64,000 nt of DNA, from NCBI GenBank assembly GCA_038131935.1, contig JAYPQH010000022.1, forward strand, positions 1 to 64,000, written 5' to 3'. The notes beneath the pieces are model-generated. The model had not been told where the DNA came from. It did not search any database and worked only from the letters and a program-made list of their open reading frames with translations. Position 1 is the first letter of the stretch, and each line of letters begins with the position of its first letter. The translations under genes and the position numbers were made by a program. Below, piece after piece: positions 3,001-16,647 of this stretch. The DNA comes from Alphaproteobacteria bacterium (lineage in GTDB: Bacteria; Pseudomonadota; Alphaproteobacteria; UBA8317).

Positions 3001-4996
3001 CCATTTAGTAAAGTTAGTCTCACAGGCAGTGAATTCAAACCTCAAAATGTGGAACGGTATAGCGAGCGGATGGATCATCTGCCATGGATTCAAAGACACG
3101 TTGCTGGCACCTAAAATTCGGCAGTTAGTATGTTGCCCTTGAGCCATTTCTCACCATAGTATCGCGCAGCCCTCACCGCGTGACCACCGATAGCGTTACG
3201 TCGCAAAGATAATTTTGCCGCTGCCCTTCGTTTTTGACAGCAGCGCCAAGGAAATGGACAAGGCTTCGGTTTCACCACAAGGCGTCAGCAGATGCCAATG
3301 TTTAGCCGACTCCGGCAATTCTTCGTTGCTCATCAGACTAGCAGCCGGCGTTTGTTGCCCATTTAGGCCTACAAATCGTATGTTTACTCTTTCATTTGAA
3401 TGACGCTTTCATTGTATTAGCACAGATGGAAAGTGTAAAATACTCCTCCAGGGACAAGCATAACAAACGACACTGTTCGTGACAAAGCTTCATCGTTTAT
3501 TCAGCACGATTTGAGAAGCTTTGATAAGTGCTTTTCCGTCCAGGTGGCCAGCTAATCGTACTGGGGCAAGGCGGGTGATGAGGCGATAGCAGGTCTTTCA
3601 CATGGAATGATCCGAAATGCCCAAAGCCCACGGGTTATTCGGTAACAACTTACAGTAGTAATGTTCAGGATGGGCAGCTCGCGTTCGAAGAGCTCGAAGG
3701 GTTTGCATACTTGGGGAAGCCATAGCCAATCTACCGGGGAAAATTGCCCGCCACAGTATCAGCTTAAAACTTTGTATCAAAATATTTAAAATATTGATTA
3801 ATAACTATTGTACTGTGTCAATTGTCCCATATTAATGCGCCAAAGTCTTTAGTATTCAGCCCTGTCTTAAGAAGATCATCTGAGCAATACGGTTGTTGTT
3901 CGAGCATTCACAGTAAAATAAGCCTTACTCGTAATCATCAGTAATACAAGCTCATCATTTCTTTATCTAGAGCGACGTATGATGGTCCGATATGCAGGAA
4001 GCTATTTGTGTTTGCCTTTTGCCATGTTGTACAGATTCCAGGAACGTCTTTTGATCCTGAACTTTGTCAATGGCAGCAACAAAGACGTGATATGATTGCT
4101 GAAAGTCTGCCAATCCGCTCTATCATGCTGAGCATTTTAAAACGTCTTGCGCTGAGCAACGATCATTTTGGCCTGAGCGACGTTTCCCAATTCGTTATTG
4201 GTGACTAAAAACGCCTGGTGCCTGCCATATTCAGCCATCACATGTGACACAGATAACCAGCCTGACGTGAAACAATTCCAGTTCGACAAGCAGGTTCGAA
4301 TGACTGTGGCAAGATATTACCCAAAATCCGAGCAGAGCACTCGCTATATACAGTGCCGGCTTCCGTCATGGCCTTTATTCATGCTTTCTTGCCTTCATGA
4401 TACTGATCGCCCACAGCCAGCACTGCGAAAGTTTTATCTGCTCTGCCTCCTGCCAATAAGCGTCGGATGCAGTGGATGATGCAACATGGTAAAGAAAATT
4501 TGCACAACAAAACTGTTGGCTGCGGATGCTAAAGCTTCATACGTTACAGAATCCAACATCGCATCCAGCGTCATCTCGAAATACATCACAATAGCCAACA
4601 GACTTGTTCAAAGTGGTTTTGCTCCAACAAACTGGGTTTTCCGATGGGAAAGAGACTAGCTCATTTGTTAGAACAGACAGAAAGAGCTCCCAAAGCAACT
4701 TTGCCTGGTTGTGAAAAACTCATCGAAGATGATGCTGGCCAATGTACAGAGTATTTCCTTCCAGTGGGAAGCCGCATTCGGATATCCGCCATCAGCGTAA
4801 CCTGAGAATAATTATCCGAAGCCAGGTTACGGAAGATCACTGTTAGAACAGCGATAAGTCATGCAGTTGAGGAGCAAGAAGGTTTCGCCGGGCTTTCTCA
4901 GATGGTCGTAGCCTCGCAGCATCGATCCAGAAAGTCGGGCGAGAGTTGTGGAACAGTTCCTGCGACATCGTCTTAACAAGCGGTGTCGAAATGCAG
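1..4996. repeat. Highly degraded inverted copy of ~5255-11728 (probable long-read fold-back/chimera artefact)
   Basis: Exact reverse-complement anchors: 2301-2323 = rc(8645-8667) and 3781-3809 = rc(6737-6765). ORF 4008..4208 (FAFCHVVQ..PGT.FD.EL.QWQQQRRDMIA) mirrors 6226..6549. The copy is collinear throughout but roughly a fifth to a quarter shorter through many small deletions, with no intact genes. Confidence 0.92.
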
Positions 4997-6039
4997 TACA
5001 ATAAAAGCTCCTTTCTTTTAGAAAAATGATTGTCATTGCAGCAAGGAGATCTTGTAATCAGAACATGCAGGAGCATGCCTTCAGGCAGATCATGAGAACT
5101 TCCTATATTGGAAAGCTCTGAGCCAAGTGCACCCGTAACTGTGCTTTGTGTTATTCTATTCATGGCTTGATCTGACGGCCTTGAAGACGTGTAACTTGCT
5201 CCCCCCGCATAACTTACCAATTGATCAGCCAACATAATGGGCTTGATAAGAAGGCCTGCGGTTTCAACGGCCGCTTGACCAAGACGGCCGAGCAATCGCA
5301 AAGGCAAGGACGCTGTTCCCAACCTACTCGCTTGACTTTCTGGATCGATAGCGAATCCAGCTAGGGTAAAGCTACGACCATCTGAGAAAGCCAACTGATC
5401 AAACTGCAACCGAAAACCTTCTTGCTCCTCAACCACATGGCCTGTCAGCGTCGCTGGTCCTAGCAAGTGATCTTCTACCCGTAGCACAACCGGATAATTA
5501 TTCTCAGGTTGCACTTGATGAGCGAGATATCCCTGAATGCGGCTTCCCACTGGAAGGGAAATGCTCTGTACATTTGGCCCAACATCATCAATCCAACTGG
5601 TAGGTTTTTCTAATAGTAAAAGTTTAGCTTTGGGATGCTCTGTCTGTTCTAACAAATCAGAGCTAGGTATCTTTCCCATCGGAAAACCACGGATTTTTTG
5701 TTGGAAAAACCCACCTTTTGGGTCGTGTGATTTTGGCCCTGGTTGTGATAGCATTTCGGATGACGCTTGGGATGCTGATGTTGGATACAAACCAGCATGA
5801 AAGCTTTGCTTTTTATCCACAGCCAGAAGTTTTTGTTGTGCAAATTTTTCTTGCCATGTTGCATCATCCACTGCATCCGTTTGCTTATTGGCAGGAGGTA
5901 AGGGCAAATAAAAACTTTCCTTAGGTTTTTCGGCCCATAATGGCTGCAATACATAAAATGCTGAGGCGATCAGAATCATGAAAAACAAAAGCATGAATAA
6001 AAGGCCATGACGAAGCCAGCGCAACATATATCTGTTCAT
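4843..6039 (-). CDS. DotG/IcmE/TraO (VirB10/TrbI-like) type IV secretion core protein; residues encoded below ~4996 are chimeric
   Basis: ATG at 6039 (MNRYMLRW), single N-terminal TM, Pro/Gln-rich linker, C-terminal beta domain with G..I.G.L...V, F(A)IDP and terminal G..LHVLIT resembling the IcmE/TraO C-terminus. Confidence 0.65.
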   Translation of the reverse strand: MNRYMLRWLRHGLLFMLLFFMILIASAFYVLQPLWAEKPKESFYLPLPPANKQTDAVDDATWQEKFAQQKLLAVDKKQSFHAGLYPTSASQASSEMLSQPGPKSHDPKGGFFQQKIRGFPMGKIPSSDLLEQTEHPKAKLLLLEKPTSWIDDVGPNVQSISLPVGSRIQGYLAHQVQPENNYPVVLRVEDHLLGPATLTGHVVEEQEGFRLQFDQLAFSDGRSFTLAGFAIDPESQASRLGTASLPLRLLGRLGQAAVETAGLLIKPIMLADQLVSYAGGASYTSSRPSDQAMNRITQSTVTGALGSELSNIGSSHDLPEGMLLHVLITRSPCCNDNHFSKRKELLLYCISTPLVKTMSQELFHNSRPTFWIDAARLRPSEKARRNLLAPQLHDLSLF

Positions 6040-6052
6040 GAGGATGTTCTCT

Positions 6053-6549
6053 TCAGTTTTTGAGATTGATATCTTGCAATTCAACCAGGCTATGAGCCTG
6101 CTTGTCAGAACTAGATAGGTTGATGAGCCATGGGTCACGTCCTGGTAAATGAACAACAATATCTGTGGTCACGTAATCTGAGAGTGGCTGAATGCTGATA
6201 GCGCCCTCTGTTTGGGCACCCGATGTCACATGAAGGCGTTTTGGATCACCAATAATAATAGATTGGGGAAACAGTCGCTCACCATTTTTGGTAAAAATGA
6301 TCGTTGTAAGCCGTCCCTGTGCAAAGAAATATGAGTCGGAAATGCTGATCTTTTAACAACAAGACGTTTTAAAATATCAACATGATAGGCGGATTGGCGA
6401 ACTTTTTCTAAAGCAATCATATCACGTCTTTGTTGCTGCCATTGATAAAGTTCAGAATCAAAAGGCGTTCCTGGAATCACACGCACCTCTGCTTGAACAA
6501 CATGGCAAAAGGCAAACACAAGTAAGCCACTGCATATCCGGACCATCAT
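6053..6549 (-). pseudogene. DotH/IcmK/TraN-like exported protein, split by one frameshift at ~6309 (probably a sequencing indel)
   Basis: ORF 6226..6549 has a signal peptide and GAGGA RBS. Shifting frame after ISLHRDG gives TTIIFTKNGERLFPQSIIIGDPKRLHV...ISIQPLSDYVTTDIVVHLPGRDPWLINL...KN* (TGA 6053-6055), matching the IcmK pattern and ending just upstream of the DotG-like ATG at 6039. Confidence 0.6.
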
Positions 6550-6618
6550 ACGTCGCTCCTCAAGATAAAAAGTAATGAGCTTATTATTGCTGATGGTTAC
6601 GAATAAGGCTTATTTTGC

Positions 6619-6857
6619 TGTGGATAACTCTGTGAACAACAACCAGTATTGTAGATGATCTTCTTAAGATAGGGCTTGGGAATACTATAAGACTTTGGCG
6701 CATTAAGTATTATAAAGGGACAATTGTTTTAATTTTAATAGTTATTAATCAATATTTTAAATATTTTTTTATTTTTTAAAAGTTTTAAGCTGATCAAAAA
6801 ATTACATGTGGCAGACAATTTTTACAAATAATTAGCTTCCCAAAATATTGTGGGTAA
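6619..6857. promoter_or_regulatory. Divergent AT-rich intergenic region with DnaA-box motifs
   Basis: TGTGGATAA 6619-6627 (perfect), TGTGAACAA 6631-6639 and TGTGGGTAA 6849-6857 (near-consensus), flanking an almost pure A/T tract ~6722-6790. Confidence 0.5.
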
Positions 6858-6931
6858 CCCACCAACTTCCCCCCAAACATGCAAAACCCTTCGAACTCTT
6901 CAGGCCTTGAAGCGATCTACCATCCTGAGCA

Positions 6932-7723
6932 TTGTTACCTGTAAGGATTGTTACCATGGAATACCAACCCATTGAGGCTAGGCATGATCTGACACCCCTC
7001 CTTTGGGGATGCGTACATGGACTGGAAGACCTTTTCTTGTCACCTCATCACCCACCCAAAACAAAACCCAGTACAGTTAACTGGCCACACAAGTGGACGG
7101 AAGAAACTTATCAAAAGCTTCTCAAATCATTGCTGGGTCAAACTGATATGAGAGCCTTGTCACGAATGGGGTACTCAGACGGTGTGCGCCCAATCCCATC
7201 GATTTTTGGAGGAGGTATTTTACGCTTCCATGCATGCTTAATACGGCATGGAAGCGTCATTCGTGAAGAATTAAGCATACGATTTTGTAAATTTCATGGG
7301 CAAACCTTGGCTGCTAGATCTGATGAGCAACGGATAATTGTAGGTGCCACCGGGTCAGGTAAAACGACATTAATGGTAGGAAGGCTTCATGCTGCTATTC
7401 AAAAAAATACACGTGTACTGCTTGTCGAGGATGAGCCAGAAATAGAATTGATGCTTGGTCAACTCATACCAGTGGCGCCCTTTGTCAAAAACAAAATAGA
7501 GGACATGGCCTTAAGTATCTTGCGACGGCGGCCAGATATAATTGCTATCGGTGAGATACGCAGTGAGGAACTTGCGCGATTTGCTGTCAATTTGCTTCAA
7601 ACAGGTCATGGTGTTCTTGCTAGTATGCACGCGGGAAGCCGTCATGAAGCTCAAGAACGCTTATATTTGCTTACCGGATTTAAGGTTGCCAACAGCGTTA
7701 TCTTTGAATCCATAAGCAGATGA
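6932..7723 (+). CDS. Short secretion-system ATPase (VirB11/DotB/TraJ/PilT superfamily)
   Basis: Walker A GATGSGKTT, Asp box VEDEPE, Walker B RPDIIAIGEIR, His box TGHGVLASMHA; possible ATG start at 6956. Confidence 0.85.
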   Translation: MLPVRIVTMEYQPIEARHDLTPLLWGCVHGLEDLFLSPHHPPKTKPSTVNWPHKWTEETYQKLLKSLLGQTDMRALSRMGYSDGVRPIPSIFGGGILRFHACLIRHGSVIREELSIRFCKFHGQTLAARSDEQRIIVGATGSGKTTLMVGRLHAAIQKNTRVLLVEDEPEIELMLGQLIPVAPFVKNKIEDMALSILRRRPDIIAIGEIRSEELARFAVNLLQTGHGVLASMHAGSRHEAQERLYLLTGFKVANSVIFESISR

Positions 7724-8007
7724 TCCATCCAACCGCTCCTTCTATACCGTTCCATTTTACATTTTGGGGTTTGGATCCTGCCTGTTGGGTTCTTGCCTTC
7801 ATGGGATTATGGATACCCGATTGGTTGGGACGACTTTGTCAGGTTTTTTTTCTCACTGCGATCATGATGTCACTGCTTGGTCAAGGACGCATGATGAGAG
7901 GGTTAAAACTTTTGATCCCGCAAAACTTTGGTGCCCTTCAGGATCATTTGGCACAACGTAAATGTCTCTATCTTGATCACATTATTCTTAAGGATTCTAC
8001 GTCATGA
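7720..8007 (+). CDS. Small membrane protein, possibly IcmT/TraK-like
   Basis: 95 aa, hydrophobic core after FWGLD, basic tail, ATGA overlaps on both sides; position after the ATPase mirrors traJ-traK. Confidence 0.45.
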   Translation: MIHPTAPSIPFHFTFWGLDPACWVLAFMGLWIPDWLGRLCQVFFLTAIMMSLLGQGRMMRGLKLLIPQNFGALQDHLAQRKCLYLDHIILKDSTS

Positions 8008-8574
8008 TACATGGCCTCATCTTATCAATGGTTCTTATACCCCTCACGGCAACTGCTGCAGACTTCACGGTTCATCATGGTCGTGCCTCATCATTTCCAC
8101 TTAGCCTTGCGGCAAAAAACCTTGTACCAAAGGATATAAAACTTCATCTGCAACTCAAGCAAAATGCCAACAAATTGGTCACCTACGAGGGGGGCAAACC
8201 TTGGCCTCTTCTTTTGTTGAACATCACCAAAACATTACCCATCATCGTTGAATTTGGTCCTGATACTGTCACATTGCGAGATATCAGCGACAAGCCAAAA
8301 GAACATAAAGATCATATTGAGAACCTATTCAAAGGTTACACGAGGATCCACCTTATACGATCAACTTCATCACTGGGCTAAGCGAGAAGACTGGACGATA
8401 GAATGGAACGGTAATTGGGATTACCCTATTTTGTCCGATGCGGAATTCAGCTCAGATTTTGTGCTGGCAAGCCAAAAACTCTTAGAAGCATTTGCACAAG
8501 CGGAGCCACCTTTAAGTGCAAAGATTTATCCTCAGAGCAAAATTATAAAAGTAGATATAAATGCCAATCGTTAG
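8004..8574 (+). pseudogene. PilL/TcpQ-domain type IVb pilus protein, split by a frameshift at ~8332
   Basis: 8004..8381 (signal peptide, PLSLA..LVP, Y.GGKPW) joins 8248..8574 (G.TL...L..WA....W...W....DYPI...A.F...F..A...L...F), a TcpQ-like domain; one extra A in TTCAAAGG explains the shift. Confidence 0.7.
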
Positions 8575-10033
8575 AATATGGTTTCTGATCTTTTGCAGTG
8601 CATGCACCTATCAAACAGATAGTGAGCCGCTGAGCAAAATCTCTCAGACAATAGATCCCAATAAGATCCAGGAAGCTCTCCAACAGCCACAAGAAAAAGG
8701 AGACAAGGCTATTCAAATTTCTCAACAACAATATTTGGGTCATCAAGGTTTTAGCACAACGCATAATGATAACGGTATCCTAAAAAGCAATGTATTGGCC
8801 AATAGCTTAGGCCTTGGCTGGACCATCATGGATTTTGCACAAGCATTAGAAGAAAATTCCAAACGCCCAGTCAGTGTTGATGTAGCAGCAAGAAAGAGAA
8901 CACAAACCTATAATTTTGATTACAAAGGCAGCCTTAAGGGACTATTGGACCAGGCATCTTCACGCTTTGATATCACATGGCAATTGAGTGAAGGAGGCAT
9001 CATCCTCCACGGACTTGAAACAGAGAATTTTTCTATCCCAAGTTTTGCAGGTCAGCTCACCCGAAGTACACATGTCACCGCCGGTGTTGGTAGGGGGCAA
9101 CATGCAGAAACACAACGTGCTCTTCAAGATCTCTCGGTTCTTGATCCTTGGGGTGAGTTGACTTCACAAGTCATTGCTTTGGCAGGGGAGGATAGCAAAG
9201 TAAATTCCAGCCCCAGTCTGGGTTTGTTGACAGTCCAAGCAAGACCGTCGGCAATAAAACGCATACGACATGTTGTCGAACAAACTTTAAAGACCATGTC
9301 CACCCAAATCATGATGGATGTCGAAGTGTATGATCTTCATCTATCAGAACATAGTGCCATGTCTGTTAATTTGGAACTTGAAGCTTTGTTCCCCACCGCG
9401 TCATTTTCATCTCAGGGCTTGGCAGGGGTTAATGTGCCTAACCTCAATTTGGGCATGGGCGTGATGCAAGGCGCTCTCAAAGGTACCAAAGCCATGCTTG
9501 CTCTACTAGGCAAACACGGTAGCTTACAAATGCAACAAAAAGCTCGCCTAACAACTGTTTCAGGTCGACCTGCCCCTTTGCATGTTGGCCGAGAGGTAAG
9601 TTTTGTAGAGCAGTTGCGCCGCGGGGTGGAAGGTGACGGCGTCACAAGGTTTAGTGAAATTCAAGCCGGCAAAATCATGACTGGTTTTGCACTAGAAATT
9701 TTACCAAAAATTTTACGAGATTATCGATTGATGGTTCAGGTTGATGCCCAACTCACAGAACTACTTAATATTAGTGATTATCAAACCGGTTCAGATTCGA
9801 TACAATTACCTGAAATTGCCACCCGACATATTCTCGAAACTGTTATCATCAAGCCTGGGCAAAGTATGGTGGTTGCAGGCTTCCAGCAGCGCCGTTCCGA
9901 GCATAGAAAACAAGGCCCAGGATGGCACGAATTGTTTATGTTGCCAGGTGGAAGCCAGCAGCGGAGTCATGATCACATTCTCTCAGTTGTGATCTTAACA
10001 CCCTACCTTCAACCATTCAAAAACAAAATATAA
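8561..10033 (+). CDS. pilN: Type IVb pilus outer-membrane secretin lipoprotein (PilN/BfpB family)
   Basis: Lipobox-like FCSAC, N-domain G.L..LLD....FD..W, secretin motifs LTT.SG.PAPL.V, GF.L.ILP, G.S.VVAGF. Confidence 0.85.
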   Translation: MPIVRIWFLIFCSACTYQTDSEPLSKISQTIDPNKIQEALQQPQEKGDKAIQISQQQYLGHQGFSTTHNDNGILKSNVLANSLGLGWTIMDFAQALEENSKRPVSVDVAARKRTQTYNFDYKGSLKGLLDQASSRFDITWQLSEGGIILHGLETENFSIPSFAGQLTRSTHVTAGVGRGQHAETQRALQDLSVLDPWGELTSQVIALAGEDSKVNSSPSLGLLTVQARPSAIKRIRHVVEQTLKTMSTQIMMDVEVYDLHLSEHSAMSVNLELEALFPTASFSSQGLAGVNVPNLNLGMGVMQGALKGTKAMLALLGKHGSLQMQQKARLTTVSGRPAPLHVGREVSFVEQLRRGVEGDGVTRFSEIQAGKIMTGFALEILPKILRDYRLMVQVDAQLTELLNISDYQTGSDSIQLPEIATRHILETVIIKPGQSMVVAGFQQRRSEHRKQGPGWHELFMLPGGSQQRSHDHILSVVILTPYLQPFKNKI

Positions 10034-10039
10034 TCAAGC

Positions 10040-10924
10040 ATGTTTGCCCCAGCACGAGAACTCATATGGTGCGTGTTTCCCACCAAGGAACTTGCCATAC
10101 AGCATGCCAAATCCTTAGGTATTGAGGCCGATCTGATCACCATGATGGATACAGATGAGGGTGTTCAGGTTGGGTATGGATGGTATGCGAGCGGCCATTT
10201 TATGGGTCAATCTGCATTTGCCCAAAATGTGGCACGGGCACATTCTCATCTCTTATTGGTACAAAAACATAATTCATCTATTTATGTATTGGCTATTCGG
10301 CATGGAATTATCGATCCAAGAACAGACAGATGCTTAACACAAGAGCGTGCGGATATTCTTCTTAAGCAACTAAAAGAAGAGGGCTATCAAGAACGTCAAC
10401 ATAAAAATGTAACATGCCGTCATATATACCGACTGCGACCTCTATCTTCTCGCCGGATGCAGCAAGGTCGGCAAAAATATTTTCTCATGCTTGCATGTCT
10501 TTTAATTCTGATATCGATTTTTGTTTGGCATGCTCATGACTTGGTTTTAAAACCTCAACCAGCATTGCCAACACAGCATCCAGCCATTTTAGGTTATGAC
10601 GCCGTGCAAGCTTGGGATATGTGTCATTCGTTAATGCGTGACCAGTTCACAATTAAAAAGCCTATATCGCTTGAATGCAAAGCGCATCATTTCGCAAACT
10701 TATCTTCCTCATCCACCTCGTCTTCTAAATTTCTAACAAGGGAAGCAATTCCCTCTTATTTGAGATGGGACGGTCAAGACCTCATCACAAAGACTGGTGT
10801 CTTAGGCGCCATATTTTTACACCAAAACAATATCTTTATCACCAAAATCACCATCACCTACAGCATAGCAAAAGGACAGCTTGTTCGCTTCCATACGCTC
10901 AAGACAGAAAGGACTTTGCCATGA
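10040..10924 (+). CDS. PilO-like type IVb pilus accessory protein
   Basis: Follows secretin; central TM; YVLAIRHGIIDP..D segment typical of PilO2; position in R64-type pil order. Confidence 0.55.
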   Translation: MFAPARELIWCVFPTKELAIQHAKSLGIEADLITMMDTDEGVQVGYGWYASGHFMGQSAFAQNVARAHSHLLLVQKHNSSIYVLAIRHGIIDPRTDRCLTQERADILLKQLKEEGYQERQHKNVTCRHIYRLRPLSSRRMQQGRQKYFLMLACLLILISIFVWHAHDLVLKPQPALPTQHPAILGYDAVQAWDMCHSLMRDQFTIKKPISLECKAHHFANLSSSSTSSSKFLTREAIPSYLRWDGQDLITKTGVLGAIFLHQNNIFITKITITYSIAKGQLVRFHTLKTERTLP

Positions 10925-11337
10925 ATTGGTATGCTCTGTTATTCACAGCCTTGCTTGCCTCCCCCGCAGCATCGGAAAATAGCCACCCCGAAACACCATC
11001 CAAACTTTATGAAGCATTGGAGCGTTTTGCGCTGAGTGAGCAATATCTCCATGCCAAGGGCACATTACTCCAACAGCAATTACAAAATGCGCAAATCCAA
11101 ACACAACTCTCTGAACTAAAGGGGGTGACACAACATTGGGTGCCTGGATTGCGCAGCATCACGGGGCCTACAGAGGAACCTCTTCTGACCATACAATATC
11201 CTGACAACCGTATTATCAAAACCACAATGCGTGAATTGGGAGAAGAATTCCATTGGGATAAAGGATCCATTTCAACATCCTTGTGTGGACGTAATATTGT
11301 TCTATTACCGACCCCTCAAAAAGTAACCTGCCCGTGA
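10921..11337 (+). CDS. PilP-like type IVb pilus protein
   Basis: ATG 10921 overlaps upstream stop; signal peptide, coiled coil, then P.LRSI.G.......I.YPD motif. Confidence 0.6.
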   Translation: MNWYALLFTALLASPAASENSHPETPSKLYEALERFALSEQYLHAKGTLLQQQLQNAQIQTQLSELKGVTQHWVPGLRSITGPTEEPLLTIQYPDNRIIKTTMRELGEEFHWDKGSISTSLCGRNIVLLPTPQKVTCP

Positions 11338-12647
11338 CAGTAAGCCTCGACATACCATCACATTTCGTGGGTAAAATTGCAGTCACACCGTCTGGAGTAT
11401 TACAGGTATCCAAAGGATATGAGCATGATCCTTATTTACATGTTCTCCACCGAAGAGCAGAACGTTTGGGGATTAAACTCCATCAAGTTGAAATGAACGT
11501 AACCCAGCAAAGTGGTACGTCACATCTTGAAAGTATGGAGCAAAACCGTCCCCAAGAAACATTACAAATGTTGCTTAAAAATATTCTTCAAGCCAGGGGT
11601 AGTGATCTGCATATCCATGTCACGAAGGACGTATGTTATGTACGTGGCCGGTTTCACGGAAACATGCAAACAATGGCCACATTTACTGCAGAATATGGGA
11701 CCAGACTTTGCGCATCATGCTTTCAGCTTTGTGAAACAACTGATGCAACCTTTTCTCCACATCAGGTACAAACGGGACGATTGGATGGCAGACTCGTTAC
11801 CTCAAGCATGGCATCCGCAAGGGTGCAATTCACACCAACCCATAATGATGGTTTGCTGATGGTTATTCGTGTTCAACGCACATGCTCAGATCATATCACA
11901 ACGTTTAAAAATATCTGGGGTGATGAGCGATGGACGCAAATTTCTGCCTACCTGCAGCATGGTTTAACACTTATCACCGGTCCAACAGGATCTGGAAAAA
12001 CAAGCCTTGCTTATGGACTTATGCAGCAAACCGCCCAAGACAACAGCACAGTCATGACGGTGGAGGACCCCCCTGAAATATCTTTAGATTTTGCGCAACA
12101 AATGTTGTTGCCGCATACCGATGATCCAACCAAACGCGAGAAGCATCAAATTCAAGCTCTGGCAGCTGCGTTAAGATGTGACCCTGATTATCTTCTCGTT
12201 GGTGAAATTCGACATGCCAGCACAGCACGGCTTGCATGGGATGCAGCGCGCACTGGACATCCTGTTGTTGCCACCATGCATGCCTCAAATGCATCAGCTG
12301 CCTATGCGCGGCTCAGACAATTTGGCATCAACCAAGACGAACTCCCTCAAGTTATAAGTATCATGATTGATATCCGATTACTTGGAGAGCTCTGCTCATC
12401 CTGCGCGAAGCCAACCTCTGAATATGAAATGGATCAAGCAAAAAAATGGTTCGGTGGAAAAGTAGATCTCAGCGATTTAAAACAAAAAGGGACAGGATGT
12501 GATAATTGCAGAGCAGGTTATGTAAACCGTATACCCTTTGTCCGTCTTTCAAACCAAAATATCAAGGAACGCTGGGTAGATATTTTGGCGAAGCCACTCC
12601 TCAAGGGCTCTATCGCCATACCATCATGGCTTAACATGGAACTTTAG
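11334..12647 (+). CDS. pilQ: Type IV pilus extension ATPase (PilQ/BfpD/GspE family)
   Basis: SDLHI, GPTGSGKT, TVEDPPE, LRCDPD.LLVGEIR, TGH.V.ATMHA, zinc motif CSSC...CDNC. Confidence 0.9.
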   Translation: MTVSLDIPSHFVGKIAVTPSGVLQVSKGYEHDPYLHVLHRRAERLGIKLHQVEMNVTQQSGTSHLESMEQNRPQETLQMLLKNILQARGSDLHIHVTKDVCYVRGRFHGNMQTMATFTAEYGTRLCASCFQLCETTDATFSPHQVQTGRLDGRLVTSSMASARVQFTPTHNDGLLMVIRVQRTCSDHITTFKNIWGDERWTQISAYLQHGLTLITGPTGSGKTSLAYGLMQQTAQDNSTVMTVEDPPEISLDFAQQMLLPHTDDPTKREKHQIQALAAALRCDPDYLLVGEIRHASTARLAWDAARTGHPVVATMHASNASAAYARLRQFGINQDELPQVISIMIDIRLLGELCSSCAKPTSEYEMDQAKKWFGGKVDLSDLKQKGTGCDNCRAGYVNRIPFVRLSNQNIKERWVDILAKPLLKGSIAIPSWLNMEL

Positions 12648-13627
12648 ATGGTTAGAAGTTTAGATCCTGTTTTGATCACCTTGCAACAAGGTTTGCGGCA
12701 AGGCAGACCATTACCTAGCCTGCTGATCAGGCTTAGGCAGCATCCGCAGGTCGAAACCAGGCGGATTGCCCAAAAATGCCACCATCACATCATGTCAGGG
12801 CATAGTTTAAGCTTTGCTCTCAGACCTTTCTTAAGCTCAGATACGTATCTGTTGGTCGCTATATTAGAAAAGCGTGGTGCAATCGATAAAGCCCTGGCGC
12901 TCGTGATAGAAAGGCAGAGAAAATGGAGACAGTTGCGTGAAAGATGCTGGCCATTATTCATCACACCCCTGGTTCTTTTTATTGGGCTTCTTGCTATTTC
13001 TCTGATGCTAAAGCTATCCATTCTGCCCACGCTAAAGACTGTTCCAAACCTACCACAAGAGAGCCTTGCTTGGTTAGAATTTCTGGTACGCTCCTTCTGC
13101 GTGACCTTCCCATCCTTATTTGCATCAGCTTAACCCTAGCTGGCTTGGCACTGAAATTTCATGCGGTGTGGGTGGGGCCGGTTAGGACATTGGTTGATAT
13201 GTTCACCCCCATGAGCCTCCTTGCGCATATTCGAGGGTTGATGGTGAACCGCATATTAATGGAAAGTTTGGAACATGGAGGACGATTTGAGCCAACTTTG
13301 CGTACCCTCCTAGAACAAGCAGATCCTTGGCTTTCTTCAAGGCTACATCCATTACATAGCCGCATTATGGCAGGCCACCATATATCAGTAGCTTTACAAT
13401 TAATGCCCTGGAAAATGGTCCCTCAAAATCTGATCGATATTTGGGCTGTTACTTCATCAGAGCATTTGGATCTCATGCGTGATACCCAAAATGAGTGGGA
13501 AACATCATTGCTTACAAAACTTGAATATGCCGTGGCATGGCTTAGAACCGCCATGCTTATAGCTGCAGCAAGCCTTCTAGGCAGTACAGCTTGGATACTT
13601 CATGTTATCCAAACCAGTTTACGATAA
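12648..13627 (+). pseudogene. pilR: PilR/GspF-family inner-membrane platform protein, split by a frameshift at ~13080
   Basis: Two GspF-like repeats (G.SLS.AL; GH.ISVAL) in ORFs 12648..13133 and 12944..13627; one missing base at GAATTTCT restores a single frame. Confidence 0.75.
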
Positions 13628-13702
13628 GCGGTTATTCGTATCATCAATCAATATCTTCATACATTCATCCTTTCTTCTCCATGACAAATAAGGGATTCAG
13701 GT

Positions 13703-14230
13703 ATGTTGATAACATTTTCTCGCAAAAGACTGCGCCGTGGCGCGGATCTTGTTAACGCTATGTTTTATCTTGTTGTTGCTGCCACTGTGATGGCGGGAGC
13801 CAGTCTTGCTTTTCAAGAATCCATAGAGCGGCACAAACAACAAAATGCTGTTCGTCAGACATTGGCCATGGCCGAGGCGGTTCGCAACATCTTTCTGGTA
13901 CCACCCAGCCAAATCACCACTTTAGGTGCAGACCTCACAAATCTTCTGCTCCAATCAAACTTGGTACCACAAGATATGCAAAGCCAAACTGGTCTCGCAC
14001 ATGCCTTCGGTGGTTCGGTACATGTTACGCAAGCTGATGGTCATATATTTTTAGCATTTGACAATATTCCACGTGATAATTGTACACGCATGGCACTTGC
14101 CATTGTTGATGCCCTGGAAGTCAAAACCACAAATGGCAAATCCAACCTAGCACCACGAACACATAAAGAATTGATCATGGAAGATTGTTTGGCTGATGAA
14201 ACAACCAATCTTACATGGAAACTGCTTTAA
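13703..14230 (+). CDS. pilS: Type IVb major pilin (PilS-like)
   Basis: Basic leader RKRLRRG then hydrophobic helix, HAFGGSVHV and FDNIP..NC motifs, two Cys. Confidence 0.8.
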   Translation: MLITFSRKRLRRGADLVNAMFYLVVAATVMAGASLAFQESIERHKQQNAVRQTLAMAEAVRNIFLVPPSQITTLGADLTNLLLQSNLVPQDMQSQTGLAHAFGGSVHVTQADGHIFLAFDNIPRDNCTRMALAIVDALEVKTTNGKSNLAPRTHKELIMEDCLADETTNLTWKLL

Positions 14231-14233
14231 AAC

Positions 14234-14587
14234 ATGCGTGCATCCGGCTATATATCTAGCCTCACGTTGGTGATGACAATGACCATGGCGACAGCCATGG
14301 TTGCAGAGCAAGCTCGCTGGCAGGCAGAACAAGCAAAAGCAAGACAGCTTGCAGCACAGATTAACTTAGACTTGGAACTAGTTAATAGTGAGCCCCCACT
14401 TAATCCTGGTACAATTGTAAACCTCCCATCAGGACGTACAGCTAAGTCCTATAACCACCAGGATCAAACCTACACAGCGATCATTATCAAGCCAATGCCA
14501 ACATATATAAATGCCTTTGCAAGCTTGGTAACGGGTGCTTTGGTCCGCGATGGTGACCAGCTTCTGGTGCTGGGTGGCAAACGTTGA
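14234..14587 (+). CDS. Minor pilin-like protein (PilV N-terminus/PilM-like)
   Basis: MRASG followed by hydrophobic helix and A...A.Q amphipathic helix; located between pilin and peptidase. Confidence 0.5.
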   Translation: MRASGYISSLTLVMTMTMATAMVAEQARWQAEQAKARQLAAQINLDLELVNSEPPLNPGTIVNLPSGRTAKSYNHQDQTYTAIIIKPMPTYINAFASLVTGALVRDGDQLLVLGGKR

Positions 14588-15117
14588 TGTTGGGTCCCTG
14601 CGGTCTTGCTATGCGCATGCTGGATTCCACAAAAATGCGCGCACTTCCCTATCCATCATTGTCCCAAGAGATATTGATGATGGGCGTATTATTGTTCGTT
14701 GAAAAAAGCCTATTTGCTTGTGTTCTAGCACTTATTGCCCTTGAGGACGGATTTCGTAGGCGTCACCATGAATTTGTATGGCTGGGATCACTCGTTATGT
14801 TGTGGCTCACAGATCATACCTGGGATTATCTTGCTCCGTTTTGGCCTTCATTGGCACTACTTACCACAAGGGTATTAGGATCCTTTCAATTTCAAAGGCC
14901 AGGTTGGTCGGTTATAGGCATGGGCGATATTTTGGGCGCTGTACCCCTTGCACTTTGGATGGGTGGAACAGCCACATGTTTGGCCTTCGCTCTTTCATCC
15001 TTTATCGGCTCCTGCCTCAAACATCATCACCACCCTCTTTTACGCGATAGCATCATCATCCTCTGCATATTTGAAGGACTAAATATATTATGGTTCGAAC
15101 TCTTTTTGTCATCATGA
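14584..15117 (+). CDS. Prepilin peptidase (A24, PilU-like)
   Basis: Multi-TM; first Asp in LEDGFRR and GMGD catalytic motif. Confidence 0.7.
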   Translation: MMLGPCGLAMRMLDSTKMRALPYPSLSQEILMMGVLLFVEKSLFACVLALIALEDGFRRRHHEFVWLGSLVMLWLTDHTWDYLAPFWPSLALLTTRVLGSFQFQRPGWSVIGMGDILGAVPLALWMGGTATCLAFALSSFIGSCLKHHHHPLLRDSIIILCIFEGLNILWFELFLSS

Positions 15118-15398
15118 TCATCTTAACAGGTAAAGTATGGGCCATGTCCTGTGATCAAGAATGGTTGGGAAAACTATCCCATGCCAGCCGCCTTGGTGCT
15201 GAGGCACGTTATCGTTCCATCACAGACATCAGCCCACTTTTGTTACGCCAAAAGGATCTGAGATGTTTGGAAAAAATCAGCGGTTTGTCCTCAGAAATGC
15301 TCCAACAATTATCGAAGGGACTTCTTATTCCTGGCCATGACCTCAATACCGTCTGCCAAAACTGGCAAAAATTGGATGGGTTACCATGGGCAGATTAA
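15090..15398 (+). CDS. Hypothetical exported protein with 3 Cys
   Basis: Signal peptide ending VWA; overlaps both neighbours in the operon. Confidence 0.55.
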   Translation: MVRTLFVIMIILTGKVWAMSCDQEWLGKLSHASRLGAEARYRSITDISPLLLRQKDLRCLEKISGLSSEMLQQLSKGLLIPGHDLNTVCQNWQKLDGLPWAD

Positions 15399-16198
15399 TT
15401 CTATTCCTATCACTCCTGTTCACAAGCCAATCGATGGCGCAATATTTTCAATCACCCACCATGATAGAAACAAGTATTCAAGAGAGCATTCAAGGGCTTA
15501 CAGAAAACCTCATAGATCATGATGTCAAACAAAGTACCCAAGCCATTGTGCGCGAACATCACATGTCTGAGGCCTATTGTGCCTATTCCCAACAACAGGT
15601 TTTTCCACGACTTGATTCAGAAAACATTCGATCTTGGGCACAGTATCTCTCCGAAGATAAATTTTCCCAACAGCTTAGCCACCGTGGAACGAGAGCTCGG
15701 GCCCTCATCGAGCTTTATAAGGATATAGAGCAAGATGACATACATAATTTTTCAAACCATATCTTGGGCCATAGCATTCCAAGTACTCAGACCGTCAGTT
15801 ATTTGGTTCATGCACTTGCCGACCGAGGTCATCTTGCACCAAAAATGCTGCAACATACCCAAAGCCAAGAACTCTATCTTCAAGCTACATTACGGCGAAG
15901 CCTGGCCCGACAAGGGCTCATCACTCTTATTGGGTTAGGCCATCCAGAACCAAACAGCTCAAAACAGACTGCCTCATCCAAAGATGAAGAAATCCTCATG
16001 CTTGCAGGGATGAGTGAGCGGGAACTGCTCATGGCACTTGTTCTGGAACATAGAAAAAATCAAAGCTATTTGGCGAATATAGACGCAAGTCTAAGGCTTG
16101 TCGCCCTAACATCCATGGCACAACTTGCTGACACCTCTATACAGCTTCAACAAGGCATTCGATGGTCAGAATATCAAAGCAGTAAAGAGCAACAATAA
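15386..16198 (+). CDS. Hypothetical exported helical protein
   Basis: 270 aa ORF, signal peptide ending SMA, operon-coupled. Confidence 0.65.
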   Translation: MGRLILFLSLLFTSQSMAQYFQSPTMIETSIQESIQGLTENLIDHDVKQSTQAIVREHHMSEAYCAYSQQQVFPRLDSENIRSWAQYLSEDKFSQQLSHRGTRARALIELYKDIEQDDIHNFSNHILGHSIPSTQTVSYLVHALADRGHLAPKMLQHTQSQELYLQATLRRSLARQGLITLIGLGHPEPNSSKQTASSKDEEILMLAGMSERELLMALVLEHRKNQSYLANIDASLRLVALTSMAQLADTSIQLQQGIRWSEYQSSKEQQ

Positions 16199-16302
16199 TC
16201 ATAGTGGCCTCAGCGCTAAACTTTTTCTTGCCATATTTCAGACTCAAATTGCCACAAAGTCCTCATCATATTTCTTCTCATAACAAAAAAAAGGAGGATA
16301 TT

Positions 16303-16647
16303 TTGATCAACAAAGCTACCAACCAGAATCCAGCACCTGTTTCATCTCAGTGCATCATTCATAGATTAACAACCATTTATATTCGAGAAGCGCGGAAGCT
16401 TATTCCAGACGCATCTCCTTCATCAATCATGCTATTTGCCACCTTGGTGGAACGGCCTATTCCAGTGAGTGTTAGAGCATTGGCAAAAAGTACAACCATC
16501 CCTCACGAGACGGTGCGACGCCATCTTTGCAAGATGCATCAAGCTGGATTGCTCGAAAAAAACAGAGATCGAAAATATATTCCTACTGCCTTGGGTTTGG
16601 AGACCGCAGAGCGGCTCAATAGGGTTGTCCTTCAGTCTATTCATTAA
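16303..16647 (+). CDS. Winged helix-turn-helix DNA-binding protein
   Basis: PVSVRALAKSTTIPHETVRRHL..M...GLL; AAGGAGG RBS at 16291-16297 before TTG 16303 (ORF open from 16204). Confidence 0.75.
   Translation: MINKATNQNPAPVSSQCIIHRLTTIYIREARKLIPDASPSSIMLFATLVERPIPVSVRALAKSTTIPHETVRRHLCKMHQAGLLEKNRDRKYIPTALGLETAERLNRVVLQSIH

Follow-up and report, generated by a model that had tools for sequence, protein, structure and literature searches.

DNA uptake is a common function of type IV pili, and type IV secretion systems for DNA uptake or release also exist, as in ComB of Helicobacter and the gonococcal island, whose DNA release system uses a relaxase. DotF has a C-terminal domain similar to the domains with which GspC and PilP bind secretins. 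In the plasmid R64 a thin pilus makes contact in liquid mating. One study (PMC11338181) assigns DotL-type ATPases a role in protein translocation in Dot/Icm systems. Here we analysed a 64,000-nucleotide stretch (the window) of an alphaproteobacterial genome (G000; 89.9% complete, 67 contigs) alongside the genome of a genus-mate (G001; 84% complete, ~180 contigs). The apparatus described below is dispersed over three loci, the largest of which lies in the window. Judging from sequence comparison we consider it probable, if well short of certain, that these chromosomal loci together encode a machine of the type IVB kind (Dot/Icm, IncI Tra), much reduced and highly divergent, with a thin-pilus module. 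Such a machine would be akin to the secretion machines of Legionella and IncI plasmids but pared down, and within a small marine bacterial group it would provide an unusual natural minimal version of them beside a complete thin-pilus operon.

As the initial annotation had supposed, the left part of the window is an assembly fold-back (Table 1). Positions 236-4912 align, at 73-92% identity and with numerous gaps, to the opposite strand of 5371-11430. This part has 24 inverted-repeat pairs and 19 minus-strand HSPs in that identity range, and the local alignment reaches the hinge near 5100. Moreover, no contig of three DNA runs (X1, X4, X10) covers 4000-5002; all leave the window at 5003, and their sequence past that point differs from that of the window. 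The three apparent frameshifts are likewise assembly errors, the genes being intact in three independent short-read assemblies, and X1, X4 and X10 share the indels by which the DotH-like, DotG-like, PilL and PilR genes regain their full frames. Each of these runs has one extra C at 6321, the point where an assembly error split the 165-aa DotH-like gene, and a 107-aa ORF once taken for a whole gene is only its first part. A one-base deletion at 8331 fuses two ORFs into the PilL-like protein, which has the same length in G001, and one base inserted at 13091/13092 joins the halves of PilR (326 aa, against 325 aa in G001). The DotG-like ORF had been given a length of 438 aa, which is wrong: a protein 97% identical to it and 335 aa long (P0001) supplies the true end, and read-supported indels at 5021 and 5044 give the ORF that same end.

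Table 1. Features of the window and gene content of the three loci.
Feature	Coordinates	Strand	Remarks
Fold-back assembly artefact	1..5002	.	noisy reverse-complement copy of ~5003-11430; not genome sequence
DotG/IcmE/TraO-like protein, 335 aa	5033..6039	-	
Short exported protein, 165 aa, probably a relative of the first part of the DotH/IcmK/TraN domain	6053..6549	-	
Divergent intergenic region between the two operons	6550..6931	.	
Short secretion ATPase, 263 aa, T2SSE/VirB11/DotB superfamily	6932..7723	+	only catalytic half recognisable
95-aa membrane protein, unplaced family	7720..8007	+	one hydrophobic segment; G001 homologue 28% identical
PilL-like TcpQ-domain protein, 189 aa	8004..8574	+	
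PilN-family type IVb pilus secretin, 490 aa	8561..10033	+	
PilO-like bitopic protein, 294 aa	10040..10924	+	one transmembrane segment; 38% identical to G001
138-aa exported protein, PilP position	10921..11337	+	position alone; start overlaps PilO stop
PilQ-like pilus assembly ATPase, 437 aa	11334..12647	+	Pfam T2SSE E 1e-50; 45% identical to G001
PilR-like platform protein (T2SSF), 326 aa	12648..13627	+	
PilS-like major pilin, 175 aa	13703..14230	+	43-45% identical to G001
117-aa protein, possible minor pilin	14234..14587	+	position and conserved N-terminal stretch
PilU-like prepilin peptidase, 177 aa	14584..15117	+	three hydrophobic segments; 39% identical to G001
102-aa exported protein	15090..15398	+	N-terminal hydrophobic segment; G001 homologue 33% identical
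270-aa protein	15386..16198	+	signal-peptide-like N-terminus by eye
Winged-helix regulator, 147 aa, last gene of the operon	16204..16647	+	G001 homologue 38% identical
Locus A, leftward			DotH-like, DotG-like, DotF-like, membrane protein with four hydrophobic segments
Locus A, rightward, first part			DotB/VirB11-like ATPase, small membrane protein, TcpQ/PilL, PilN, PilO, PilP-position gene
Locus A, rightward, rest			PilQ, PilR, PilS, possible minor pilin, PilU, two unknowns, wHTH regulator
Locus B (C67-C62-C16)			sigma-70-family gene, DotI, small ORF, DotL-type coupling ATPase, polytopic membrane protein
Locus C (C37)			TraQ/DotE-like (VirB2-related) membrane protein, HerA/FtsK-clan ATPase

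Locus A, made up of the window and contig C63, consists of two operons pointing away from each other. The region between them carries four promoter-like sites where 1.6 are expected, three facing left and one right (consensus matches only). The rightward operon (6932-16647, +) is a complete and tightly packed type IVb pilus operon of the R64 type, as had been proposed, with family matches to secretin, TcpQ, T2SSE and T2SSF, a profile match to PilO, and weak matches to PilS and A24. Its short ATPase matches Pfam T2SSE at residues 134-247 (E 5.3e-26) and, among NCBIfam models, best ComGA and VirB11; it aligns with DotB of the class over 106 columns (hhalign probability 98.1%) and is 40% identical to its G001 homologue. 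The 95-aa protein sits where IcmT/TraK follows DotB in type IVB loci of the class and matches nothing in Pfam or NCBIfam; the earlier label of IcmT-like has to be dropped, as NF038220 gave no match and hhalign against IcmT returned E 0.05. In the PilL-like protein the TcpQ domain (8248-8574) scores 56.2 bits in Pfam (E 3.6e-15), and hhalign relates the protein to the TcpQ-domain gene found after icmT in class type IVB loci at 99.6% probability. The best secretin model for PilN is TIGR02520 (E 1.3e-44; 152.7 bits, below the 287.65-bit cut-off), with Pfam Secretin at E 1e-12 and 40% identity to G001, while the PilO-like protein aligns with seven PilO-position ORFs (hhalign probability 91.8%, E 7.6e-7). 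The PilQ-like ATPase matches GspE, ComGA and PilB models at E 1e-44 to 1e-46, and the PilR-like protein matches Pfam T2SSF in its first half (E 5.8e-10) and second half (0.012). Weaker are the matches of the pilin to Pfam PilS (E 6.3e-4, 20.2 bits against a cut-off of 22) and of the PilU-like protein to Peptidase_A24 (E 1.7e-4, 22.4 bits against 26.5). The pilin's N-terminus, ADLVN..MFYLVVA, is conserved, with Asn and not Glu at +5. Four products, namely the PilP-position, 117-aa, 102-aa and 270-aa proteins, match no Pfam or NCBIfam family; a 48-residue N-terminal stretch of the 117-aa protein is 52% identical to G001, and the G001 homologue of the 270-aa protein is 32% identical over 278 residues. 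The regulator matches several wHTH families at E 1e-5 to 1e-2, all under their cut-offs.

The core proteins of the apparatus are near-orphans, in keeping with the earlier impression of short and very divergent products: the DotG-like family has only two representatives among 1.84 billion. Sensitive methods alone support the putative DotG/TraO-like (VirB10-fold) assignment. In this protein an N-terminal membrane anchor is followed by a low-complexity linker and then by a TrbI/VirB10-like C-terminal domain. The protein aligns over 168 columns with 21 DotG-like proteins (hhalign probability 87.9%, E 3.3e-6; controls E 0.13-0.31), its family profile retrieves a TrbI protein, certified by Pfam, that adjoins a DotH gene in another genome (G159), and the TrbI set accounts for 27 of its 30 ESM-Atlas neighbours. 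Pfam and NCBIfam were empty even at E 10, as were PDB sequence searches, and both AlphaFold models are poor (pLDDT 47.0 and 44.2) and give no usable structural confirmation. Directly upstream lies the gene of the 165-aa protein, which is probably, although not provenly, DotH-like. Once corrected it is 36% identical to a 170-aa G001 protein, and against DotH it gives E 1.0e-4 to 2.3e-4 at 45-57% hhalign probability (controls E 0.17-0.73), in an alignment that takes in just the opening part of the DotH domain. The unfiltered DotH HMM scores 13.6-25.5 bits in three of four family members and 5.8 in the fourth, Pfam, NCBIfam and PDB sequence searches do not recognise the protein, and one source names a family member (P0005) DUF3625, which we take to be the older name of PF12293. 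Under profile search, then, the DotG label stands by sensitive methods and the DotH label is probable, while curated models are silent on both. The DotF-like protein is recognised by NF038218 (E 1.8e-7 in G001, 1.2e-9 on C63) and aligns with the product of the gene after dotG in class loci (hhalign probability 98.4%, E 9.8e-15); a comparison with PilO and PilP showed no relation to either. The resulting dotH-dotG-dotF order is that of 21/21 class loci examined.

The initial annotation had described a self-contained pilus with two core genes and a machine that lacks a coupling protein. The latter is true of the window only, and the former does not hold, the window having just one of the three loci. 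Locus B (C25 in G001) encodes a DotI homologue (PF11393, 51.2 bits, above cut-off) and a coupling protein of the DotL/TrbC type, which matches IcmO/DotL (PDB 6sz9, E 4.7e-47) and NF041447 (E 8e-53) and carries TrwB_AAD_bind (E 1.8e-9), a DNA-binding-domain signature. No membrane segment is predicted in this coupling protein. Locus C (C21 in G001) adds a TraQ/DUF6750-like protein (hhalign probability 95.6%) and an ATPase with HerA/FtsK/VirB4-clan Atlas neighbours (recognition 3434) and a match to AAA_10 in G001 (E 2.3e-5). Judged by sequence, no other protein found here is a candidate for the VirB4/DotO role; the match of this ATPase to DotO is confined to the P-loop surroundings (E 0.004). A canonical VirB4/DotO was not found in the two incomplete genomes with PF03135, TIGR00929 or a local five-row DotO profile, and neither were DotC and DotD; any of these missing genes could be unassembled. 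Of the genes that the initial annotation had suggested looking for elsewhere in the genome, then, a DotL-type gene was found, whereas a canonical DotO, DotC, DotD and relaxases were not.

At the lost left flank, where further genes had been thought possible, C63 and the corresponding G001 contig (C123) recover just the DotF-like and small membrane-protein genes, followed by GcrA-like and DsbA-like genes, with no tra region, relaxase or integrase on either contig. On the right the locus runs into an esterase and a TRAP transporter, where metabolic genes had been noted before. The gene order of locus A is kept in the second species at 28-52% protein identity, and that species has all three loci, each flanked on the compared sides by the same genes. 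None of the 20 window ORFs scanned matches a relaxase, integrase, coupling-protein or VirB4 family and no tRNA lies in 1-30000, so that the reported absence of these from the window holds within these bounds; four relaxase families were likewise not found in either of the incomplete genomes. Base composition of the locus is that of the rest of the genome. Together with the ordinary flanks and conserved gene order, this supports the earlier view of a chromosomal locus that is not a recent mobile element. On balance we favour a type IVB-like apparatus in reduced form, passed on vertically and equipped with its own pilus module, probably used for contact-dependent transfer. An IncI/Dot-Icm-like ancestor may have become fixed in the chromosome and then lost its mobility functions. 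The DotH-, DotG- and DotF-like proteins would form a periplasm-spanning core, and DotI, the DotL-type ATPase and the polytopic protein an inner-membrane substrate gate. The type IVb pilus would make and hold cell contact in the role that the thin pilus has in R64, and the cargo could be protein, or DNA without a classical relaxase, moved into or out of the contacted cell.

It is unlikely, in our estimation, that the pilus alone works, in adhesion, aggregation or surface motility, with the Dot-like genes as leftovers of an anciently integrated IncI-like element that decay or are kept as pilus accessories. In its favour, no part of the pilus set is missing and curated models identify the core parts, and VirB4, DotC and DotD functions were not found. 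PilN-type pilus operons lacking DotH are also found in many genomes of the class: by a hand count, ~58 of 401 genomes reach E 1e-40 or better for PilN, with DotH in only 24 of them. Of eight such loci examined, seven had no Dot-like gene within 10 kb, and the eighth gave just a weak DotF match on its PilO-position ORF. However, the Dot-like genes sit in tight operons, are intact in three independent assemblies and, being shared by two species at an identity of only 31-56%, have stayed open through long divergence; decay also explains poorly the survival of six or seven distinct type IVB-type parts at three loci. We regard as distinctly unlikely a chimeric machine in which the PilN secretin and TcpQ replace the missing outer-membrane cap (DotC, DotD and the C-terminal part of DotH) above a periplasmic ring of truncated DotH-like, DotG-like and DotF-like proteins, giving one envelope conduit common to pilus and secretion functions. 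The shared divergent promoter region would suit it, as would the failure to find DotC, DotD or the remainder of the DotH domain, the homologous TcpQ-domain gene after dotB-icmT in canonical class loci, and the likeness of DotF to secretin-binding domains. By itself, however, adjacency is a weak argument for contact between the parts, and the genomes are incomplete. Judged by eye, and in a model of low confidence, the DotG-like protein also appears to retain the VirB10-type outer-membrane-pore helical segment, so the secretin may be unneeded.

The coupling-type ATPase with its TrwB_AAD_bind signature and the lack of relaxase matches could point instead to relaxase-free DNA uptake or release, that is, to competence or donation and not protein injection, with the pilus and ATPase moving the DNA. 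Pilus-mediated uptake, ComB and the gonococcal island are precedents, but the gonococcal release system does need a relaxase. Protein translocation is moreover the role that PMC11338181 gives to DotL-type ATPases in Dot/Icm, and we hold the DNA reading to be very unlikely. That the Dot-like labels reflect chance or fold-level resemblance, the leftward genes being lineage-specific envelope proteins outside type IV secretion, is highly improbable. The DotG-like and DotH-like proteins do fail all curated models and PDB sequence searches, and the structure models are unusable. Against this, three adjacent genes match dotH-dotG-dotF members respectively and in the same order, curated models or PDB sequences identify the proteins of the DotF, DotI and DotL types with E values of 1e-7 to 1e-53, and cross-family controls remain at E 0.1 or above.

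The sequence recurs in public data, with 15 runs from 10 studies containing 74-87% of the sampled words. Contigs from an RNA library fall on 27 of 30 bins, possibly through DNA carry-over in the library. Within the regulator gene, a one-base difference at 16285 is seen in X4, X10 and X16 and is absent from X1.

The left end of the contig, in the source metagenome-assembled genome (MAG) G000 (2.48 Mb, 67 contigs, 89.9% complete), is a fold-back chimera and not genome sequence, and the features called within it are spurious. It repeats sequence from further inside the window in reverse complement, with many gaps and at 73-92% identity. Part of it is without a contig in any of three DNA runs with independent short-read assemblies (X1, X4 and X10), and the contigs of these three runs diverge from the window at 5003 and continue into other sequence (see table). 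The same assemblies share a set of single-base differences from the window, and when these are corrected the open frames become 335 aa for the DotG-like protein (with the same end as P0001, a 97% identical protein), 165 aa for the DotH-like protein, 189 aa for PilL and 326 aa for PilR. Since these lengths agree with those of the intact genes of G001, a second species of the same genus, the apparent frameshifts are errors of the G000 assembly. Single-base errors split further G000 genes, namely acs, a DsbA-like gene and a coupling ATPase gene, so apparent pseudogenes in this assembly need a short-read check first. A narrower, practical lesson is that a fold-back and single-base errors in a long-read MAG imitated a lost flank and broken genes.

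Coordinates of the features and sequence positions discussed in the text
Feature	Sequence	Coordinates	Strand	Remark
Fold-back copy	G000, window	1 to about 5002		reverse complement of about 5371-11430
Segment without contig in X1, X4 or X10	G000, window	4000-5002
Divergence of X1, X4 and X10 contigs	G000, window	5003
Single-base differences common to X1, X4 and X10	G000, window	5021, 5044, 6321, 8331, 13091/13092
tRNA scan	G000, window	1-30000		none found
Pilus operon	G000, window	6932-16647	+
Major pilin	G000, window	13703-14230
A-run length difference	G000, window	16285		inside wHTH gene; X4, X10 and X16, never X1
A-run length difference	G000, window	16654		just after wHTH gene; X4 and X10, never X1
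DsbA-like gene	G000, C63	1341-2172		split by assembly errors
Sigma-70/ECF-like gene	G000, C67	76-615
Coupling ATPase	G000, C62	183-1922		split by assembly errors
acs	G000, C37	42591-44528		split by assembly errors
HNH protein (215 aa)	G000, C30	109356-110003		L097:5357-6004
Pilin	G001	L009:4896-5507
Sigma-70/ECF-like gene	G001	L099:185-817
Coupling ATPase	G001	L099:1694-3214
Plasmid region of Thalassospira xiamenensis M-5	NZ_CP004389.1	121561-162925		L102

The initial annotation had allowed that the lost left flank might carry a full tra region. That scenario does not hold: the flank recovered from a 2.4-kb contig of G000 (C63), contig C123 of G001 and a metagenome contig (L100) has a DotF-like gene and a small membrane protein gene followed by housekeeping genes. 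In C123 the order is a 170-aa DotH-like protein, a 349-aa DotG-like protein, a 256-aa bitopic protein and one of 125 aa that has four hydrophobic segments, then GcrA-like and DsbA-like genes; C63 carries the same genes as this flank and L100 the same set, its DotH-like gene being cut at the contig end. The dotH-dotG-dotF order is thus kept, in an operon that ends in housekeeping genes. The 107-aa membrane protein of C63 found no support as DotE/DotP (DUF6750; E 0.11).

The 335-aa DotG-like protein is a near-orphan, with one match in a search of 5.8 billion clusters and two representatives among 1.84 billion proteins, and among 401 class genomes its family was found in two, with two weak cross-family matches besides. 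One of the weak matches, in G159 of the same class, is to a Pfam TrbI protein (E 3.4e-17) whose gene directly follows that of a DotH protein recognized by Pfam (E 4.9e-58). Searches of Pfam, NCBIfam and PDB sequences with the 335-aa protein were blank, PF03743 gave no match, and PDB sequence/profile searches with the DotG-like query produced nothing but the match of a transmembrane helix to FtsL (E 0.49). We compared the family, as profiles of 2-4 rows like those of the other orphan families, with dotH-dotG pairs from 21 class loci, and by hhalign it aligned with the DotG-like proteins over their TrbI domain at a probability of 87.9% (E 3.3e-6, 168 columns), cross-family controls reaching E 0.13-0.31. 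In the ESM Atlas 27 of the 30 nearest clusters fell in the TrbI set, some of them named DotG/IcmE/VirB10 and TraO, at a low recognition value of 2060. Only profile-profile and embedding methods identified it as a DotG/TraO protein with a C-terminal TrbI/VirB10 domain. Structure models were poor (pLDDT 47.0 from the single sequence and 44.2 from a 3-row alignment), too low for a fold search, and a complex predicted for the G001 pair, between the DotH-like protein and the C-terminal portion of the DotG-like one, scored 0.15 against a mark of 0.32, which is evidence neither way.

The small protein encoded upstream is probably DotH-like, at below half of the usual length. It aligns with the start of the DotH domain at hhalign E 1.0e-4 to 2.3e-4 (probability 45-57%, 84-86 columns; controls E 0.17-0.73), and the unfiltered DotH HMM gave 25.5, 14.2, 13.6 and 5.8 bits on four family members, PF12293 (DotH) finding no match in G000 or G001. 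One source labels a family member, P0005, as ‘DUF3625’, which we take to be the former name of PF12293. Members are 165-183 aa long, against open frames of 294-684 aa in the DotH genes of the class. The 256-aa bitopic protein is DotF/IcmG/TraP-like: it matched NCBIfam IcmG/DotF (NF038218) at E 1.8e-7 in G001 and 1.2e-9 in G000, over the C-terminal domain only and below the 200-bit cut-off, and the gene after dotG in the class loci at hhalign probability 98.4% (E 9.8e-15). As a paralogue of PilO or PilP it was rejected (E 0.08 and 0.17).

The pilus operon is the better recognized half of this locus. The secretin scored best, among 6 secretin models, with TIGR02520 (PilN family; E 1.3e-44 and 152.7 bits, below the equivalog cut-off of 287.65) and exceeded the cut-off of Pfam Secretin; just before it lies the TcpQ/PilL-type gene (Pfam TcpQ 56.2 bits, cut-off 27). 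Also above their cut-offs were the PilQ-type assembly ATPase, of PilB/GspE type (T2SSE 172.9 bits), and the PilR-type platform protein (T2SSF 39.7 bits), whose gene is intact after the read-supported correction. PilO was matched by profile at a probability of 91.8%, with weaker matches for the PilS-type pilin (20.2 bits, cut-off 22), the A24 prepilin peptidase (Peptidase_A24 22.4 bits, cut-off 26.5) and the wHTH regulator. The gene in the PilP position, the 117-aa ‘minor pilin’ and the two ORFs after it had no family match in Pfam or NCBIfam and bear names by position only, and a general Pfam/NCBIfam scan of the ORFs gave no match to a PilV tip adhesin, a shufflon or an Rci recombinase. The first gene encodes a 263-aa ATPase of which the catalytic half alone is recognizable. 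The second, a 95-aa ORF, had been labeled IcmT-like; its position alone fits, and we withdraw the label because NF038220 gave no match at E 0.1 and hhalign reached E 0.05. Every gene of the operon save the PilP-position ORF (no match) has a counterpart in G001, in the same order and at 28-52% identity. The major pilin has Asn at +5 after the predicted cleavage site, where Glu is usual, and the G001 pilin has Ala rather than Gly at -1.

Further parts of the apparatus were found by searching profiles from ten wide type IVB loci of the class against all 12,554 ORFs of G000. Contig C62 encodes DotI, followed by a DotL/TrbC-type coupling ATPase broken into three ORFs by assembly errors. The G001 counterpart (C25) reads sigma-70-family gene, DotI, a 116-aa ORF, the coupling ATPase (506 aa), a protein of 533 aa in which about seven segments are hydrophobic, and a 108-aa protein; in G000 the locus spans C67, C62 and C16 and then gives way to housekeeping genes. 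The DotI/IcmL/TraM (VirB8-like) assignment is supported by PF11393 (51.2 bits in G001, cut-off 27.7) and NF038072 (E 1.8e-15 in G001, and 1.6e-10 for the G000 fragment), and that of the DotL/IcmO/TrbC-type ATPase by PDB 6sz9_A (IcmO/DotL; E 4.7e-47) and NF041447 (TrbC; E 8.2e-53). The coupling protein, which the initial annotation did not see in the window, lies elsewhere in the genome in both species. In G001 it has no hydrophobic segment and is without the parts matching IcmO residues 1-117 and 580-783. The 533-aa polytopic protein matched nothing in Pfam, NCBIfam or PDB and can be labeled a DotA/TraY/VirB6 analogue by topology and position only. A sigma-70/ECF-like gene (Sigma70_r2 E 7e-7) heads this locus in both species and is a candidate for a dedicated regulator of the system. 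A third locus, on C37 and flanked in both species by acs and an RND efflux operon, encodes a TraQ/DUF6750-like protein directly before a P-loop ATPase of 482 aa (499 aa in the counterpart), whose Atlas neighbors lie in the HerA/FtsK/VirB4 clan (recognition 3434), with a weak AAA_10 match. As DotO this ATPase was rejected, the match being P-loop only at E 0.004; DotB matched better (E 1.7e-4) and PDB gave nothing useful.

Both G000 and G001 are incomplete, and genes missing from them are best described as not found rather than absent. PF03135 (VirB4) had no match in G000, TIGR00929 had P-loop-level matches only in G000 and G001 (E 9e-4 or worse), and a local DotO-position profile found nothing in G000; no VirB4-family ATPase (TraU/DotO) was thus recognized in these searches, the candidate being the HerA/FtsK-clan ATPase beside the TraQ-like gene. 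NF033882 (DotD), which recognizes the DotD of the class genome G224 at E 1.7e-29, had no match in G000 or G001, and local DotC-position and DotD profiles (4 and 2 rows) gave nothing below E 0.036 in G000, leaving the DotC/DotD outer-membrane lipoproteins without a recognized gene in these searches, as is the case for IcmT/TraK. Pfam TrbI was not found in G000. The sole DotN match in G000 was an HNH/IscB-like protein instead, and this 215-aa protein matches the RNA-guided endonuclease IscB model NF040563 at E 1.1e-12.

What these parts amount to can be weighed against several readings. A conjugative element should carry a relaxase and, as an ICE, an integrase with a tRNA or att site. The initial annotation had noted no relaxase in the window, and the same holds across the incomplete genomes G000 and G001 for the four families PF03432, PF08751, PF03389 and PF07514; moreover, the locus is flanked by housekeeping genes in both species. 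Nor does the system look like one in decay, since its three loci and their neighbors are conserved in two species whose orthologues are only 31-56% identical, which argues for selection. Its parts are those to be expected if a type IVB machine had become fixed in the chromosome and been trimmed. In such a machine H, G and F would form the periplasmic core, DotI a VirB8-like scaffold and the DotL-type protein the substrate ATPase; a polytopic membrane protein would sit in the DotA/TraY position, the TraQ-like protein would stand for the VirB2-related small proteins (PMC4027160), and two or three further ATPases and the thin pilus would complete the set. It most likely works like an MPF-I machine with the pilus giving contact; as to its cargo and recipient we can only infer. 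Since searches for the VirB4-type ATPase by which MPF-I is defined did not find one, we do not class the system with MPF-I.

The system is unusual in how far it is reduced and diverged, in the head-to-head joining of its two modules and in that no DotC, DotD or DotO is recognizable. We see a rather slim chance that the system is a true chimera, in which the pilus secretin and TcpQ form the outer-membrane gate for a stripped core below (truncated DotH, DotG, DotF, DotI, a membrane-less DotL-type ATPase and a HerA/FtsK-type ATPase replacing VirB4). Such a machine, if real, would be a naturally minimal type IV secretion apparatus that works without VirB4, thought universal, or DotC/DotD, thought structurally essential. 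Searches of open-access full text gave no account of a marine alphaproteobacterium with a type IVB core and a type IVb pilus operon joined together, nor of a type IVB system without DotC/DotD/DotO, and a check of PMC11104534 for MPF-I terms gave no relevant passage.

The G000 system and that of R64 (IncI1, MPF-I) both pair a type IVb pilus of PilL/N/O/P/Q/R/S/U type with TraN/O/P (DotH/G/F), TraM (DotI), TraQ/R and TrbC (DotL) type parts, the H-G-F gene order is shared, and the NCBIfam IncI1 models TraO, TraP and TraQ match the class homologues that served as templates. PMC4027160 describes MPF-I as having two pili, one of them homologous to type 4 pili and required for liquid mating, with TraO homologous to VirB10, and names VirB4 as the sole ubiquitous T4SS protein. 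However, R64 has 49 transfer genes according to the same source, against about 26 (about two dozen) seen here, and unlike R64 the G000 system is chromosomal, split over three loci and without a relaxase found, with no TraU/VirB4-type ATPase, TraI/TraH (DotC/DotD) or PilV shufflon recognized. The description of its proteins as short and very divergent was confirmed, as they are much shorter than those of R64, with core proteins between a third and a half as large as usual, and 22-30% identical to plasmid homologues.

Similar to Dot/Icm of the Legionellales and relatives, the system is chromosomal, multi-locus and without a relaxase, has a DotL-type coupling ATPase, DotI (NF038072), the DotF C-terminal domain (NF038218) and the DotG TrbI domain, and keeps the icmK-icmE-icmG order. 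Unlike Dot/Icm, which PMC11338181 gives as about 27 proteins in Legionellales, some Francisellaceae and Piscirickettsia, it has no recognized DotC, DotD, DotO, DotN, DotM, IcmS/W or IcmT, its DotL homologue is shortened at both places already mentioned, it has a linked type IVb pilus, and its host, an alphaproteobacterium of metagenomes from seawater, estuary, salt lake and biofilm, is not known to be intracellular. A plasmid of Thalassospira xiamenensis M-5, likewise a marine alphaproteobacterium, carries in order an extra ATPase, a small ORF, TcpQ, PilN, PilO2, x, an ATPase, T2SSF and a pilin, adjoining a coupling protein 30% identical to that of the G000 system. This cluster differs in being plasmid-borne and in its coupling protein of 1276 aa, and DotG, DotH, DotF and DotI profiles found no match within 41 kb. 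MOB-suite types the plasmid as non-mobilizable.

Within the class, DotH was found in 28/401 sampled genomes, 24 of which also match a PilN-type secretin with an E value no worse than 1e-40, and 10-19 kb separate the secretin from dotH in 5 genomes (both from our reading of the tables). An unpublished genome, G040, counts once each among the 28, the 24 and the 21 template loci, and none of the claims depends on it alone. The canonical class loci (e.g. G224, G171 and G088) share the dotI-dotH-dotG-dotF-TraQ/DUF6750 series, and their dotB-icmT-TcpQ-gene order parallels the ATPase, 95-aa protein and PilL of G000, the TcpQ-domain gene being homologous to this PilL at a probability of 99.6%. Co-occurrence of PilN and DotH, together with the TcpQ gene in canonical loci, makes pilus and type IVB core habitual partners in the class, as they also are on IncI plasmids (PMC4027160). 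The class loci differ in having a Pfam-level DotH (145.9-270.5 bits), DotD, DotN, IcmT and a 1003-aa DotO-position ATPase, which are absent or unrecognizable in the source genus, where the shared proteins are 30-60% shorter. The loci of G224 (L081/L082) and 9 other class loci are chromosomal Dot/Icm-like type IVB systems. The alphaproteobacterial genomes that carry them are small, and the loci are surrounded by housekeeping genes (argS, rne, ileS, flagellar genes).

To our knowledge, type IVB systems have seldom been discussed beyond intracellular pathogens and IncI plasmids. The present one is chromosome-fixed and wired directly to a pilus operon, and if working it would set a lower bound on what a type IVB machine needs, would show how a conjugation apparatus becomes domesticated and would offer small proteins with which to study the structure of the DotF/G/H core. 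One may also ask what a marine bacterium of this kind makes contact with. As for its relatives, a secretin-based search of genome contigs gave 82 pattern matches, none of them a relative, and the DotG-like alignment found one locus in metagenome contigs, L100, whose ORFs are identical in reading to those of C123 and add no new diversity. Fifteen runs from ten studies, one of them maybe of the source sample, hold 74-87% of sampled words, under the labels salt lake, seawater, marine, estuary and biofilm. Contigs of the RNA library X16 cover 27/30 bins, which shows that the sequence is present in an RNA library and is at most a hint of expression, short of a proof of transcription. The A-run length differences in and just after the wHTH gene are strain-level.
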